Positions 10,791 through 60,261 of a DNA stretch of 64,000 bases are shown in pieces. A program made the translations under genes and the position numbers. Source of the stretch: Octopus sinensis (lineage: Eukaryota); assembly GCF_006345805.1 (NCBI RefSeq), contig NC_043008.1, forward strand, positions 41,912,001-41,976,000, in the 5' to 3' direction. Position 1 is the stretch's first letter; every line of letters begins with the position of its first letter. A model generated the notes under the pieces. The model was given only the letters and a program-made list of their open reading frames with translations, did no database searches and was not told the DNA's origin.

Positions 10791-12537
10791 CCACTAACTA
10801 TGACCCAATTTGGTTACCATGTGCCAGGGAACATTTGAAGAAGTATTGGAATGAGCGTGCTTAGGTAGACGTATACCGTATTTCTGAGCAATCTTAAATA
10901 TTCATTTTAAGTTACTAAATATTATGTCGATCAGTTGAGATTTTGTTACTTGCTGATTCGCTTCATATGCCTTAGACCTTAACACCTTGTCGTTCATAAT
11001 TTAGACCCATTGATTCGATAATAACAACCACATTTCTTTTCAGAAATGCCATATTATTATAGTTCAAAGAAATGAGTTTACGAATACTATCGTGTAACTG
11101 AATAATGGGTTTTTTTCACATTCGCTTCTATCGTATTCCGAGCAATAAACTTTTGTATTTCTCCCTTGGTCTTTGTATTTAAGTGTTGTGTGTGTCTGTG
11201 GAAGAAAGAGAGTGGCATAAAACAGATTTTGTTTGCTTTGTTTTTTATTAGACATTTTTTCGGTAATAAATATATATATATATATATATATATATGTAAA
11301 AGGTGTGTAGTATCGACCAGCGCAGTCACTAAGTTCAAAGAAATAATTTTTTTTTATTCTAAACATCAACAGAGATGTGGAAATATTGAAAGTACGAGTA
11401 GGTTGTACAACAAAAATTCTTCAAAGAATCACCATCTTATTAGTGCACCGAGTGACCGTAAAACTGAGAGAGAGATGTTACAGAAATAAAACTATGTGAG
11501 GAAAACTACAACATACGAATTACATGCAATACCTTTGAAGTGTGTTGTTTGAGACTAAAATACGTAAGATTTTTGCACCAACATAGAATATTATCTGTAT
11601 TTTATTCCTGTGTTTTATCCGCTGCTATTTTGGAATATCAACACGATCTTCACAGCGGCAATACTTTCGCGATAATACAGTGTGACTTCATCTATAAAAG
11701 CTTCACTGACCCTATTAATGACTATACAGTCTTTTTGAAAGTCACTACTTTTGTTTTACTTTTTCATGTGAGAGTATATAACGCATACATGTGTATGTGT
11801 ATCTGTGTATGTCTACCGGTATATGCATGCGTGTAGCTATAGTGCGTGTATATGGACAAAAAAAATTATTTTCATTCCACATTTTCCTAAATGAATTGAA
11901 TATGATTATCTCTCTGTGCCTATAGACGTTTGTGTGTACGCATTCTTCCGTGAATGTATAAACAATATGGACTTGATGATAAGAATAATTGAGTTTCTAA
12001 GCATAAACGCACAAGTACACACTCACGTGTGTGTGTGTGTGTGTGTGTGTGTGTGTGTGTGTATGTATCTGTGCCAATTTATGCATACATAATTGTCAGT
12101 ATGTGTGCATATATACATATGTATGTCTATGGACAGATATATATATATGTATATAAATATATTTTTGCTATGTGTATAAGACATATATATAATATATATG
12201 TGTGTGTGTATAAGACAATATATAGATATTATATATATATGTTGTATAAAACATATATATATATATATATATATATATATATATATATATATATATATAT
12301 AATATATATATATATATATATATATATATATATATATATATATTACTATATACCTATATATATATATATATATAATATATATATATACAAATACAAATAT
12401 TTTTAAAAAATTTAATTGTTTTCCATACTTAAAGTTGATAAAGGCTCAATGACTGAAACCGGTACTGAAATATTTTTTATAAAATTGTTTTAGCATTCTC
12501 TATCTTGACTTTTTTCCATATATATATATATATATAA

Positions 12538-12778
12538 ATCCGCCCTTTTAAAGCCTGGCCAGGCTCATGGGCCCGGTTTCCCGGTTTCTATGGCGTATGT
12601 GTTCCCCAGCTGGACGGGACGCCAGTCCATCGCAGCGTTACTCATTTTTGCCAGCTGAGTGGACTGGAGCAACGGGAAATGGAGTGTTTTGCTCAAGAAC
12701 ACAACGCGTCGCCGCCCGTCCAGGAATAGAACCACAATCTATGATCTCATACACTAACCACTAAAGCCCCCGCGCTCC
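12538..12778 (-). mobile_element. SINE family D (tRNA head plus CORE-like domain), tail type 1
   Basis: Minus strand GCGTTGTGTTCTTGAGCAAAACAC...GTTGCTCCAGTCCACTCAGCTGGCAAAAATGAGT, shared with 36800-37003 and 39483-39800. Confidence 0.82.
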
Positions 12779-15350
12779 ACACACCACACACACACACACC
12801 ACACATATAGATATATATATATATATATATATATATATAATATATATATATATATATACATATATATATATACATATATATATATATATATATTATATAT
12901 ATATATATATATAAAGGATTATACACATCAGTGTGTTGTCTGTGCGTTTCGTGTTGGAACAGTCATCCATGTGTCTGTGCTTATATATGCGTGCAGAACA
13001 TTTGCGTGCTTATATTTCTATGGAAATACATACTTTTTACCATGAAGCAAATGGTAATGAATTTGTGTACTTATATAATATAATAGTAAGTAAAAAGTGT
13101 CAGATGGCATGTGAAAAACATTTCCCTTTTACACTCTCCCTTTGTCTGCTTATGTGTGCGTGTTTATATGTGCGTGTGCGTGGATATATATATATATGTA
13201 TATGTACACACACACATATATATATATATATATATATATATATATATATATTATACACATATATATATTTGAATGTATACACACGCCCACACACAATATG
13301 CATATGCTCATAACTGTGTATGTATCAAAAAACCGCACGATGGCCATATATAATATATATGTGTGTATTCATTTATATATATATATATATATATCTATAT
13401 ACATATATATATATATATATATATTTGCATATATATATATATATATATATATATATATATATGTCTGTATATATATATATTATATATATATATATATAAT
13501 ATATATATGTACAGAGGAGAGAGAGAGAGGGAGAGAGAGATGTGTATGTATATATATACGTAACTGATATACATATACTTTGTATATATATATATATAAT
13601 TGATGTATATATATCGATAGATATATCGGTAGACAGAGAGACAGACAGAGAAAGAGGAGAGAGAGAGAGAGAGATAAGAGGGGTATATGTATATATCCTT
13701 CTTTGCCACCTTTTCAGTATCAAATAGCTATTTAATGAATTACTTGAATGCATTCATCAACTTGAGTAGATAAAATAGACAAATAACATTTATATTGGTG
13801 GCGTTTTGGCGCGAACGGGAATGAAGAAAAATGTCGAAATAAAAAAAAAACAATAAAAAATAACCAGAGATACAAAAGTGTAAAACATGTCGCAGAAATC
13901 ATAAAAAAAAGGCAACGCAAGACATACATTTGACTTTTCGTATTGACTGACGATGTATAGCAATAATCCCGTCATTTACACATGTGAAACGAAGTAGGTT
14001 GCAAAGTTTCATTTCAGTGACAACGAAGGTGTTGTGTTCGTTGTAGCCAGAATCAATGGAAGTTGACTTACTGCGTTTCATGCATTTCTACTGGGTGTCA
14101 AAAAGAATGTGTTTGCTTCACACTCACAGCACATAAACAGCCCGCACACACACACACAGACACAGACACACGCGTCCACACACACGCAAATATAAACATA
14201 CACACATACATGTATATATATTTTTTTTAAGTTTCAGCTAAGAGCTGCAGCCATATATACACATGTACGTATATATTTACATATATTAGTATATATTAAC
14301 ACGTATGTATATATACATATACATATATAAATATATGTAATATTGCCTATAATATATATATATATAATATATATTATATATATATATATATATTATATAT
14401 ATACATATATTTTACATATATACTTTATATATATATAAATTTATATACATGTATATATATATATTACATATATTTACGTATATATGTACATATATACATA
14501 TATTATATATATATCGGTATGTATATATATATATATATATATATATATATATATATGTATATATATATATATATATATACATATATTACGTATATATCTT
14601 CATATATACATATATATATGTTTTTTTATTGTGATTTATCTGCTTTTTTTTTGCTCTTTTTGCAATATTTGATGTACTTTTATTTTATGTTTTCGCCTTT
14701 GATATGTTCTTTAAATATCTTTTTCTGTTTGTTATTGTTTCGGTTTCAATGGTTTTCTTTTATTCCGGACACACAGCCACAGACACACTCATACACAAAT
14801 ACACATATATAAGCGTCTGTTTGTGTGTGTCAGTGCGTGCACACGCCTGTCTGTGCGTGTCTGTGTGTGACATAACAAGTATATATTGCATGTGACACAT
14901 TAAAGAACTCTAGTAAAAGCAAAACAATTGCAAAAATTGAGAGCAAGACATTCAGTCATATTTCTCACACGCACATACACACACATGCACATACATATAC
15001 ACGCACATACACACACACGCACCTACACACAGATAGGTATCCATTTGCGGTTATATTTGTATTTCATATATCATACAGACGAGTATAATATAGATACACG
15101 CACACTGACATACATATGTATATATATATTATATACACACATACACTCATCTATATCTATATATCCATTTATATATACATATATATATATGTACATATAT
15201 ATGTGTGTACATGTATATTATATATCTGTGTGTATGTATGCTTACAAAGGACAAACCCTTTGGTCAATTTCTCTGCGTAAAGGTGGTTCTCCAGCATGGC
15301 CGCAATCACATGACCGATGCAAGTAAAACAATAAGAAACTATTCCATCTT

Positions 15351-15382
15351 AGTCCCGAGCAACGCTGGGTATCTCTGCTTGT
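15351..15382 (+). mobile_element. Helitron-like 3' terminus
   Basis: GC hairpin CCCGAGC-AAC-GCTGGG about 8 nt before CTTG|T (degenerate CTAG|T). Confidence 0.45.
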
Positions 15383-15490
15383 ATATATATATATATATAT
15401 ATATATAGTAGTAGTAGTAGTAGTAGTATAGTAGTAGTAGTAGTAGTAACAGAAAAGAGGAATTTCGATTGTCCCCACGTGGTGGGTTGT

Positions 15491-58420: not shown

Positions 58421-58421
58421 T

Positions 58422-58850
58422 GTCATTTTTCAGTTTTATTTCAAGATTTCTTGCCAATAGAGAAAGAACCGGATTCTAATCCAGATCCAAGTTTCCTTCA
58501 TTGGAATTTCAACATCAACAACAGGCTATTTTTGTATGTATGTATGTATGTATGCATGTATGTACGTATGTATATATGTATGTATGTATGTATGTATGTA
58601 TGTATCTATGTATGTATGTATGTATGTATGTTTGTTTGTATGTATGTATGTATGTATGTTTGTTTGTATGTATGTATTTATGTATGTATGTGTGTATGTG
58701 TGTTTTATGTATGTATCCTCATGCATATAGCTTCCTATCAAGAAATGTATATTGCGAATTTTTACAGTTCTAGTCATGGATCTGTAGTCTTCGAATTCAG
58801 GTACAAACCTGAACTTGCAATCTGGATAGATTAACTACAGATTTCTCAAT
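58422..58850 (-). mobile_element. R4/Dong-clade 3' end, same family as 31398-31818, with internal (TACA)n expansion
   Basis: 58422-58535 is the reverse complement of about 31700-31818, and 58800-58830 matches CTATCCAGATTACAAGTTCAGGTTT at 31427. Confidence 0.75.
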
Positions 58851-59911
58851 CTATGTATGAATGTATCTACGTATGAACGTATGGATATATATATATATAT
58901 ATATAAATTATATATATATACATGTGTTTGACTTGATTATGCGGAGCACTTAATGCTTCTGTAATCCAAGTTACCATGTTTTTTTATGAAATGATGTTTA
59001 TTCCCTGAACAATGTTTTTTCTTTGTTATCTCTGTCTCAATTACATTTGAGCACTTCTTTTTCCCACCCTTATAACCCCTTTTGGCTACATAAAAAAGAG
59101 ACAAAAAGTTATCTCTTGCCGTATATATATATATATATATATATATATAATATATATATATATATATATACTATATATATATATATATATATACATATAT
59201 ATATATATATATATATATCTATATATATATATATATATATATTATATATATATATACACACACACACACAGATACACACATATATATACATACATACATA
59301 TACATACATACATACATACATACATACATACATACATACATACATACATACATATATACATGTTGTTGTGTCTGCTTAGATCATTTAACATACTCATTGG
59401 AAAATTTTCCACTCATTTGCTTATTTATATTTCCTAAAATTTTAGTTGCGTCTTGCAACCTTTTCAATTGTCGTCATGCGATCTGCGTTCTTTTTGTTTG
59501 TTTGTGCGTATGTTTGTGAGTCAGAGTGTTTGCGCATTCACACGTAAGTATGTATCTGTGTATGCTTGTATGTATGTACGCATGTGCCTGTATACATATA
59601 TGTATGTGTGTATGTGCGTATGCATATATGTAAGTATGTGTCCATTTTTGTACTTACGTGTTCTGCATATTCATATGCGTGTATTAATGTATACTTGTAA
59701 TGCATAATGCAAGGGGGAGTGAGAGGTGAAGACAGATGTAGTTTATAATATTTACTCTTCACTGAAAAAAATTCTCGCTCGTATATTCCGGATTTGCATT
59801 TAAATGGTTACATCATAACTGCTTACTACGTAGTCTGATAGCCGATTCAGAATGTAGCGCTTACTGTGATAGCCGCATGATATATAGATAAACATATATA
59901 TGTTCACATAA

Positions 59912-60261
59912 TATATTAATAAATAAAATATATGCATATATATATATATATACATATATGTACATACCTACCTCTCCATGTATATATACACGCATATATG
60001 AGTACAGGACACCAAAAAAACGTCGAACACAATGAGAAACAAAAACATGGACACAAACCCAAGGAACTTGACATTTTTCTTAAACAACAAAAAAATAGAG
60101 TACAGGACAAATAACACAAGGAAAAAACCCCTTCTTCAGTCGCCATGGTTTCATCTACTCTACGTTTCGAAGCTGTACTCATATATGCGTGTATATATAC
60201 ATGTAGAGGTAGGTACGTACATATATGTATATATATATGCATATGTTTTATTTATTAATAT
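59912..60261. repeat. Element with inverted arms of about 95 bp, Penelope-like inverted terminal repeat
   Basis: 59912-60007 is mirrored at 60173-60261 (...ACGCATATATGAGTACAG / CTGTACTCATATATGCGT...). The inner minus strand keeps GAAA-CG-TA-GAGT, a hammerhead 3' half. Confidence 0.8.

Follow-up and report, generated by a model that had tools for sequence, protein, structure and literature searches.

Hammerhead motifs in the window

The window, i.e. the whole stretch of 64,000 nt analysed here, comes from the forward strand of Octopus sinensis (RefSeq GCF_006345805.1, NC_043008.1:41,912,001-41,976,000), and all positions are given in window coordinates. A first-pass annotation had reported ten main hammerhead sites and two remnants in it, and we located all twelve on the strands it gave and 1-6 nt from its positions (Table 1). 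Eleven of them are members of seven high-copy repeat families, and the twelfth, at 60155, is a half motif. The complete family A copy at 15726 sits in a fold-back of about 330 nt (15490-15823; -212 kcal/mol) that is predicted to sequester the motif.

Table 1. Copies of the hammerhead motif in the window, by position
Family	Span	Strand	Core	Other positions	Features of the copy	Element
H (U3-A8)	12432..12467	+	12435-12441	G12 12455; H17 12464	6-nt palindromic stem III; one stem II pair and one stem I pair broken	about 12399-12531
A (A3-U8)	15556..15590	-	15585-15579		stem II pair broken; inverted 5' partner of the copy at 15726	
A (A3-U8), complete	15726..15760	+	15731-15737	C17 15755	5-bp stem I; 2-bp stem II with 4-nt loop; 6-nt palindromic stem III	
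B (C3-G8, U6)	18805..18838	-	18835-18829		stem I down to 3 bp	about 18714-18849
C (CUGAUGA)	19520..19577	+	19525-19531	H17 19572	long stem II; 8-nt palindromic stem III	about 19407-19664
B (U6), complete family form	35499..35534	-	35530-35524	H17 35503	stems I and II of 4 bp each; 4-nt palindromic stem III	
D (CUGAAGA)	38816..38868	-	38863-38857	H17 38821	8-nt deletion in distal stem II; 9-nt near-palindromic stem III	
B, diverged B-like copy (site 42318)	42314..42349	+			about 74-78% identical to B; A15.1 to U (reads GAAU), hence broken	
F (C4)	43538..43574	-	43570-43564		one stem II pair broken; centre of fold-back 43501-43636	
C-like subfamily	50397..50445	-	50440-50434		position 3 changed, and C4; stem I broken; relative in locus L019	
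E (CUGAUGA)	56660..56700	+	56661-56667		5'-truncated within stem I, the 5' strand of which is gone; C11.1 to A	about 56660-56763
G tail, half motif	60075..60172	-			GAAA and 4-nt palindrome; not counted as a hammerhead	

Families A, B, C, D, E, F and H all hold the order stem I, 7-nt core, stem II, GAAA, palindromic stem III, UH and stem I', and their copies keep stems I and II and the palindromic stem III according to the family alignments and folds. The earlier description of several unrelated families stands for these seven, which have a minimal type I hammerhead at the family level and differ in their helices, and fails for family G at 60155, which does not hold the order. That site has only the GAAA/stem III half, and the longer members of its family lack a CUGANGA-like core, position 5 being A and stem II having two pairs. 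Read by eye as a type I or a permuted type II motif, it yields a consensus core with stems in neither form; nor is there a core with stems at other places where GAAAC is followed by a palindrome (838, 17069, 17344, 19910, 32101, 63917 and others). The supposed remnant at 12435 is actually a near-complete copy of a U3-A8 family (H).

The figure of about ten ribozymes is not borne out by our data, as most of the window copies are damaged and CUGANGA is read at only three of the ten main sites. The family motif is matched fully in two of the twelve copies (15731 and 35530) and nearly in three (19525, 38863 and 18835). What had been described as CUGANGA-like sites are core variants fixed in their families.

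The motifs exceed what is seen in shuffled sequence. A relaxed type I descriptor with a palindromic stem III gives 1, 3 and 6 matches at 0, at most 1 and at most 2 core mismatches, versus means of 0, 0.13 and 0.77 (maxima 0, 1 and 3) in 60 sequences with dinucleotides shuffled within blocks of 300 nt. If the palindrome rule is dropped, 8 matches with at most 2 mismatches are found in the window against a shuffle mean of 3.2 (maximum 7). Rfam has no match in the window at the gathering score, and hammerheads are absent among the 150 matches listed of 516 by E-value, the listed ones being microsatellite noise; a general repeat search of the window was likewise dominated by microsatellites.

The inference of a large and diverse population of Penelope-type hammerheads agrees with the genome searches. 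Each of the families A-F and H has about 960-1970 first-look candidates in the genome, and at least four further hammerhead families were found in fetched loci outside the window. In 582 kb of flanking sequence, a sample biased to microsatellite-rich sites, there are 52 copies, from which a very large total of about 2 x 10^5 can be roughly extrapolated. The window is about twice as dense as the flanks of other loci (11 versus 5.7 per 64 kb), and the adjoining 20 kb has 0. A dense picture of many families of hammerheads in Penelope-like elements (PLEs) is already in print for many animals (PMC4209133); since dense and varied minimal hammerheads in PLE tails are known, the finding as first put forward is an ordinary one.

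Penelope-like origin of families A, D and H and, probably, of the others

Families A, D and H are tails of PLEs, a known class. Elsewhere in the genome, frames with RT and GIY-YIG domains (RVT_1 and GIY-YIG by Pfam) sit 300-900 nt upstream of their motifs on the same strand. In family A this was seen in 11 of 30 loci, with about 300 nt between frame end and motif, in family D a GIY-YIG-type frame lies about 890 nt upstream in 3 of 30, and a PLE frame is found upstream on the same strand in 3 of 25 loci of family H and in 8 of 25 of family A', a diverged sister of A. The proposed link to RT and GIY-YIG frames thus holds for A, A', D and H, and no linked frame was seen among the scanned loci of B, C, E and F (0/30 each), G (0/20) and I (0/55), whose copies are short and for which the queries came mostly from one PLE clade. 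The window itself has no PLE frame. In all, 78 full-length RT-EN relatives were found, and the closest protein relatives (P0001-P0012) are 46-60% identical. A GIY-YIG frame in locus L026 was dropped as a partner of family C, being downstream of C and past a family B copy and (TA)n, and two PLE fragments, one close to a family I copy (L238/L285) and one in L387, were inserted separately.

Families B, C, E and F are likely to be Penelope-like retroelements as well. The PLE traits of 5' truncation, inverted copies on the 5' side and microsatellite targets are present, together with an optional 3' tail in family I. Of 250 loci, 187 have a lone copy, in 58 the copy is joined on its 5' side by an inverted one, and 3 have a same-strand neighbour within 1 kb. 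(TA)4 or longer occurs within 240 nt downstream of 170 of 245 anchor copies versus 502 of 2000 background windows, and is low in family E only (4/31).

Full elements with the motif in both flanking repeats were not found for A, A', D and H, nor was a full-length A copy in 9 extended loci; this arrangement is seen in relatives (L293, L325 and L354) and possibly in family K (L443). Families A and K have an upstream coiled-coil-like frame in common with a metagenome relative. In one large sequencing run, contigs are about 100 times more numerous over the 3' end of a family A stretch than over its 5' end, a ratio that is not a copy number. Contigs of this run and of three others that may be of RNA cover the stretch, and contigs cannot show ends or expression.

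We are fairly confident that the sites are the 3' ends of 5'-truncated PLE copies (A, D and H; likely B, C, E and F) with the hammerhead of the terminal repeat, the window copies being likely inert. Reverse transcription would start 70-170 nt downstream of the hammerhead and usually stop early, which would explain the thousands of short motif-bearing tails scattered over the genome. Cutting of the parent element's RNA by the hammerhead is predicted to require either a dimer or the protein that the element encodes. In published work, monomers of PLE hammerheads do not cut and dimers do so weakly (PMC4209133), and for one vertebrate PLE the protein of the element makes cutting possible (PMC11167929). 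Dimeric cleavage of the window copies, which had been read from the palindromic stem III, is unlikely because these copies are lone or in fold-backs and mostly damaged.

All four versions of the core pair 3-8

The new part of our analysis is that families of one genome fixed all four Watson-Crick versions of the core pair 3-8: C-G, U-A (12435), A-U (15731 and 15585) and G-C (outside the window). Tallies from the 40 best-scoring copies per family, which are biased to the query, are 33/33 A-U in A, 20/24 A-U in A', 25/26 U-A in H, 50/51 G-C in I and 28/28 C-G in B. When positions 3 and 8 were left free in the search, 50 of 51 motif groups pair there and all 13 non-C3 groups are Watson-Crick; the groups are partly non-independent, with F split in three and the U3-A8 groups sharing ancestry. 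In a looser scan of metagenome loci 47 of 57 matches are paired at 3-8, and the matches include one U3-G8 and one C3-A8, both at terminal-repeat positions. The metagenome relatives came from an alignment scan, the first metagenome scan having given none.

Other core positions have family-fixed changes too, U6 in 28 of 28 parsed B copies and C4 in 19 of 20 parsed F copies. The consensus core C3 U4 G5 A6 N7 G8 A9 (or its U3-A8 form) is found in D, E, H and about half of C, and the off-consensus cores of A (A3-U8), B (U6), F (C4) and I (G3-C8) are filed as variants. Helix covariation is present between families and lineages, including pair 3-8 and stem I, while young families change internally too little to tell.

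The two sister families A and A' have A3-U8 in common. Their motifs agree in 23 of 25 columns, the exceptions being N7 and loop II, and their flanks agree in 159 of 322 (Fisher p 1.5e-5). In addition, a two-sided change is seen in stem I. From the trees, A3-U8 appears to have arisen twice, each time next to U3-A8 relatives. Two A3-U8 lineages were rejected as one clade (p-AU 9e-68), with U3-A8 sisters beside each, in a quick tree with midpoint root of 24 rows chosen from loci with the motif, family K included. A nesting of A directly in C3-G8 elements came out only of a 33-row tree without K (midpoint root; L286, L289 and L290 excluded for short frames), and the sister became U3-A8 once K was added. 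The path at 3-8 would be C-G to U-A to A-U, with G-C in another family.

Possible selection on the fold and alternative explanations

The four fixed versions of pair 3-8 suggest that the fold is kept by selection. Positions 3 and 8, which pair only in the active fold, changed together, and the catalytic fold would therefore be under selection in the source elements. The swapped pair, obtained twice independently in the case of A3-U8, would be comparative evidence for such selection in vivo. The only reconstituted PLE, that of the anole, inserted normally without cleavage: hammerhead mutations have no effect on insertion in vitro and no cut-site RNA ends are seen in RNA-seq (PMC11167929).

Our reading, which we think could go either way, is that hammerheads with all four 3-8 pairs work, that cleavage is selected in retrotransposition with the element protein probably acting as a chaperone, and that the U6 and A5 families are passengers spreading without cutting. 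With the same balanced chance, one of the working ribozymes would be of the A3-U8 type, about 35 nt long and with a stem II of 2 bp, and another would be of the G3-C8 type, from a very recently copied family. Family B has at least about 2000 candidates despite U6, C and F spread with C4 and G with A5, and changes at positions 6 and 4 lower hammerhead activity in vitro (PMC3088659), so that amplification may not need cutting. If all four pairs work, the swaps would be natural proof that cleavage is selected.

An alternative hypothesis of the same PLE origin could be that the fold is kept for binding, to a PLE protein or through RNA-RNA dimer contacts of the palindromes, and that A3-U8 and G3-C8 do not cleave; pair 3-8 would thus be a structural need. 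The anole results, the high copy number of the families with U6, C4 and A5 and the 2-bp stem II of family A are consistent with it. However, the pair forms in the catalytically active fold (PMC3884650, in part), a C3G/G8C double swap partly restores the cutting that single changes abolish, also in a PLE (parts of PMC11167929 and PMC8495972), and G5, A9, GAAA and UH are common to A and A' while their flanks diverge. We consider this hypothesis unlikely.

A start codon could also have kept A3 in family A, as A3-U4-G5, with U8 following or incidental, and we regard this as quite improbable. The anole PLE reading frame begins inside the hammerhead, as given in part of PMC11167929, and 28 of 32 A copies have a donor-like GTAAGT 53 nt downstream, but the idea became weak once the frame length was checked: the frame from the AUG ends after 18 codons in A (28/32) and mostly after at most 16 codons in A', ahead of the donor-like site.

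The families might instead be non-autonomous retrozymes, short units in tandem that canonical type I hammerheads cut and that then form circles. Only short non-coding copies are seen of B, C, E, F, G and I. In family I the 5' ends are bunched, and 119 nt are identical in 34 of the 40 scored copies, so that some families may be non-autonomous. Like animal non-LTR retrozymes (Cervera and de la Pena 2020; PMC7229834, in part), the octopus repeats are short, AT-rich and high-copy with a type I hammerhead, but retrozymes as defined there are head-to-tail arrays of canonical hammerheads, whereas the octopus copies are lone or inverted and minimal. With a same-strand neighbour in 3 of 250 loci against an inverted 5' copy in 58, the retrozyme-like units of the first-pass annotation are unsupported, and A, A', D and H run on into RT-EN frames. 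The retrozyme explanation is very improbable.

It is hardly credible that the window copies act as intronic ribozymes on a host transcript, possibly pairing through shared palindromes: the same-strand B copies at 18835 and 35530 do have one palindrome in common and hetero-dimers between families with one palindrome would be possible in principle, but no Pfam-recognised host exon was found in 87 window frames of at least 55 codons, which leaves the suggested host intron unsupported, the copies have changes at functional positions relative to their families, as expected under neutral decay, and the complete A copy lies in the stable fold-back described above.

Comparison with known hammerheads

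The octopus families resemble the minimal hammerheads in the pseudo-LTRs of metazoan PLEs (Cervera and de la Pena 2014, PMC4209133; review PMC6765202) in type I topology, a palindromic stem III of 4-9 nt, an extra base that often follows A9, many families per genome, a position behind RT-EN, mostly lone 5'-truncated copies and opposite-strand pairs 100-700 bp apart. They differ from those of PMC4209133, where only C3-G8 and U3-A8 are reported, in having fixed A3-U8 and G3-C8; the alignment of representatives in its figure S3 has no cephalopod and no 3-8 state beyond these two. Other differences are the 2-bp stem II of A and A', the family-fixed U6 (B) and C4 (F and part of C) and, in C and D, a stem II whose base has a mismatch or bulge. 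Unlike the system in the relevant part of PMC8557442 (2021), families A and K have the extra upstream coiled-coil-like frame.

One genome thus supplies a test panel of C-G, U-A, A-U, G-C, U6 and C4. CUGANGA-type descriptors and Rfam overlook whole high-copy families, and if our reading is true, such consensus-based searches miss these families and animal hammerhead counts are therefore too low. In the literature we found only U3-A8 described as natural, and Lunse 2017 or its supplements may already list A3-U8 or G3-C8. The variants of Perreault et al. 2011 (PMC3088659) have in common with ours the U3-A8 covariation, natural changes at positions 4 (U4C) and 6 (A6C) and a 2-bp stem II. A3-U8, G3-C8 and A6U do not appear in section 8 of that paper, and in the octopus each variant is fixed in a family with roughly a thousand copies or more.

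Core variants fixed within families

The hammerheads noticed in the window are real, and they belong to an already known class: the minimal hammerheads of Penelope-like elements (PLEs), their number and the U3-A8 form of the 3-8 core pair are all in print, and 235 Rfam hammerhead matches are reported for the giant squid (PMC6962438). We provisionally regard as a new variant the four-way swap of this pair (C3-G8 in the consensus), which is fixed by family in these predicted ribozymes and has good comparative support. Natural A3-U8 or G3-C8 was not found in our full-text literature search, whose coverage stopped short of Lunse et al. 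2017 and of four papers on biochemistry. C3G combined with G8C is described as laboratory mutants, and in the accessible text of PMC3884650 G3-C8 is a laboratory variant only. No study of these families was found in the literature on hammerheads, Penelope and octopus or other cephalopods.

The deviations that had been described as CUGANGA-like are fixed at the family level among the parsed copies of the scored sets. A3-U8 is carried by 33/33 copies of family A and U3-A8 by 25/26 of family H, while U6 is found in 28/28 copies of family B and C4 in 19/20 of family F. Family C is mixed (C4 in 15/32), and families D and E have the canonical core. The register of the family A core is set by the seven bases between the 5-bp stem I and stem II. 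Family A', a sister of A outside the window and 68% identical to it over the 3' end, has A3-U8 in 20/24 copies; N7 and loop II are changed, and 23 of the 25 motif columns agree between the two families versus 159 of 322 flank columns. In a further C4 family, J (L002, L167 and L189), stem II resembles the one in B, but position 6 is A.

At 15784-15789 (+), 53 nt past the core start, lies a donor-like GTAAGT; it is present in 28/32 copies of family A, with a weaker one in A'. The stem I and core of family B (35524-35550 and 18829-18850, both on the minus strand) form a pyrimidine run ending in an acceptor-like UAG, with the AG falling on core positions 7-8. This likeness might be the reason for U6 in family B; position 7 varies, however.

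The G3-C8 form was found in family I, by a flank scan with positions 3, 7 and 8 left free. Stems I and II of its motif span 7 and 5 bp, G3-C8 is present in 50 of 51 copies, and 34 of the 40 best copies show no difference over 119 nt. The family has an optional ~55-nt tail, 5' ends that fall within a few bases of one another and very often a fold-back. It may be a young non-autonomous element.

Covariation at the 3-8 pair

We scanned all loci in the collection strictly, with Watson-Crick stems only, G5, A9 and GAAA fixed, U or C at position 4, A or U at position 6, and positions 3 and 8 free. The scan gave 249 hits in 51 groups, which are not all independent and come from a pool enriched for these families by design; a shuffled control gave one hit. 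The groups comprise 37 C-G, 10 U-A, 2 A-U, 1 G-C and 1 C-A, so that all 13 groups without C3 are paired. None of 100,000 permutations reached 50 paired groups. Helix covariation among family copies, the lack of which the first-pass annotation had named as counter-evidence, is seen as a two-sided change in stem I between A and A', and position 3 pairs with 8 in 50 of the 51 groups. Both results compare families and lineages; copies of young families differ too little to show covariation.

Among 82 metagenome or metagenome-assembled loci with related reverse transcriptases (RTs), the motif in the terminal repeats is mostly C3-G8, several times U3-A8 and once A3-U8 (locus L363). A loose scan of these loci found 47/57 hits paired at 3-8; the unpaired rest are mainly weak hits but include, at plausible positions, a U3-G8 and a C3-A8. 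In a quick, midpoint-rooted RT tree of 24 rows, family A is sister to the U3-A8 family K (SH-aLRT 100) within an otherwise C3-G8 clade, while L363 joins two U3-A8 elements in a distant part of the tree. Placing both A3-U8 rows in one clade is rejected (p-AU 9e-68). With the root at the midpoint, we infer an order of change from C-G through U-A to A-U.

Relation to Penelope-like elements

The repeats had been called Penelope-derived or retrozyme-like, and the first of these names is supported. A frame with RT and C-terminal GIY-YIG endonuclease (RT-EN) ends ~300 nt upstream of the motif on the same strand in 11/30 family A loci (Pfam). Such frames also lie upstream on the same strand in 8/25 loci of A' and, at 460-660 nt, in 3/25 loci of H. 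Three of 30 family D loci, which align over 1.36 kb, have a frame ~890 nt upstream without a Pfam match, assigned to the GIY-YIG type by visual inspection and by its resemblance to other frames of this type. With queries mostly from one PLE clade, the loci examined for B, C, E, F, G and I yielded no linked RT-EN frame. In family K the hammerhead lies 480-980 nt downstream of the GIY-YIG match; a coiled-coil-like frame lies upstream. The element protein has its nearest named relatives in bivalve molluscs.

We classified 250 loci of A, A', B, C, D, E, G, H and I, leaving out F because a fold-back junction had served as its query. Of these, 187 stand alone, 58 carry an inverted copy on their 5' side and 2 on their 3' side, and 3 have a neighbour on the same strand within 1 kb; a single locus shows both kinds of neighbour and one is unparsed. 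(TA)n follows the motif in 170/245 copies versus 25% of background windows. Lone copies, inverted 5' copies and (TA)n are marks of PLEs as described in PMC8557442 and PMC4209133, the latter also counting lone minimal hammerheads in the thousands for each animal genome and describing pairs on opposite strands. Together with the upstream RT-EN frames, these marks identify families A, D and H as PLEs; B, C, E and F are likely to be PLEs too. Non-LTR retrozymes, in contrast, are described as head-to-tail arrays with canonical hammerheads (PMC7229834); the repeats, with same-strand neighbours at three of the 250 loci, do not fit this description and are very unlikely to be retrozymes. The idea that some copies lie inside a host intron was not borne out, as Pfam recognised no host exon among 87 window frames of 55 codons or more.

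PLE RT-EN frames were also filed under bacterial genomes (L373, L374 and proteins P0032, P0053 and P0055), one with a hammerhead behind it. These are probably animal DNA in those assemblies.

Proposed working

We propose that a source element would be transcribed from a tandem arrangement and that the terminal-repeat hammerhead would cut after H17 once a second copy completes stem III through its palindrome, as described elsewhere (PMC4209133, PMC6765202). The predicted palindrome duplexes have -0.2 to -8.3 kcal/mol, and predicted folds containing stems I and II lie within 0.2-3.1 kcal/mol of the energy minimum. Alternatively, the element's protein may fold the hammerhead so that cutting occurs. 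Protein-enabled cutting is reported in PMC11167929, which also found that the double change C3G/G8C brings back part of the cutting of a PLE hammerhead and that insertion in vitro does not depend on cutting. Reverse transcription would start downstream of the motif, early stops and fold-backs would leave short tails like those in the window, and these would decay after insertion. Predicted fold-backs of -212 and -74 kcal/mol enclose the window's complete A copy and its F copy, respectively.

The paired swaps at 3-8 argue that the active fold was under selection in the source elements, whereas the spread of B (U6) and G suggests that it may be dispensable in some families. In other hammerheads, cutting is weakened but not lost when position 6 or 4 is changed (PMC3088659).

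Census of the window

The window, from an assembly of 2.72 Gb, has 34% G+C, 100 N, ~17 kb of microsatellite and at least 13 kb of interspersed repeat. When 0, 1 and 2 core mismatches were allowed, a relaxed descriptor of the type I fold that required a palindromic stem III matched 1, 3 and 6 times, an excess over the means of 0, 0.13 and 0.77 in 60 block-wise dinucleotide shuffles; an Rfam search of the window found no hammerhead at gathering score or among the E-value matches listed. Genome searches with the sites of families A-H gave ~960-2020 first-look candidates per family, of which 40 scored copies per family were compared. All twelve positions of the first-pass annotation hold a motif or remnant, but its figure of about ten ribozymes overstates the working number (see the table). 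Longer members of family G have A at position 5 and a 2-bp stem II.

Not counting the anchor's own family, probes for 12 families found 52 copies in 582 kb of flanks, or 5.7 per 64 kb, versus 11 in the window and none in the adjoining 20 kb. The window is somewhat rich in hammerheads, not exceptional.

Features of the window and loci of families I and K
Feature	Position or loci	Strand	Remark
Hammerhead	15731 (A), 35530 (B)		complete against own family
Hammerhead	18835 (B), 19525 (C), 38863 (D)		nearly complete
Hammerhead	12435 (H), 15585 (A), 42318 (B), 43570 (F), 50440 (C-like), 56661 (E)		stem or core position damaged
Half motif	60155 (G)		GAAA/palindrome half alone
Inverted repeat	25016-25336, 26276-26597		322 nt, 94%; third copy 32462-32713
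Tc1/mariner-like transposase fragment	17952-18532	+	DDE_3 below cut-off for 18233-18529
Tc1/mariner-like transposase fragment	9080-9400	+	by eye
Tc1/mariner-like transposase fragment	44583-44981	-	by eye
LINE-type-like frames	4248-4865, 21255-21701, 31197-31622	+	by eye, no Pfam match
LINE-type-like frame	46122-46529	-	by eye, no Pfam match
Dispersed short repeat, SINE-like	90-252, 29336-29719, 32825-33226, 39017-39403, 43744-44082, 52927-53328, 56202-56431		65-86% identity
Second dispersed short repeat, SINE-like	864-1093, 7453-7680, 24728-24915, 52684-52852, 53782-53978, 55164-55372		65-86% identity
Assembly gap	~48461-48560		100 N
Family I	L375-L404, L235-L259		outside window; ~200 nt, fixed 3' end then (TA)n
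Family K	L411-L434, L442, L443		young PLE family, U3-A8; many intact 780-781-aa RT-EN frames

Both SINE-like families are without hammerhead motifs. The inverted repeat (25016-25336 and 26276-26597) resembles a further element whose 5' part is inverted. A frame resembling a peptide-receptor GPCR exon (by eye) adjoins a family B copy at the genomic locus L036 (190-678, minus strand).
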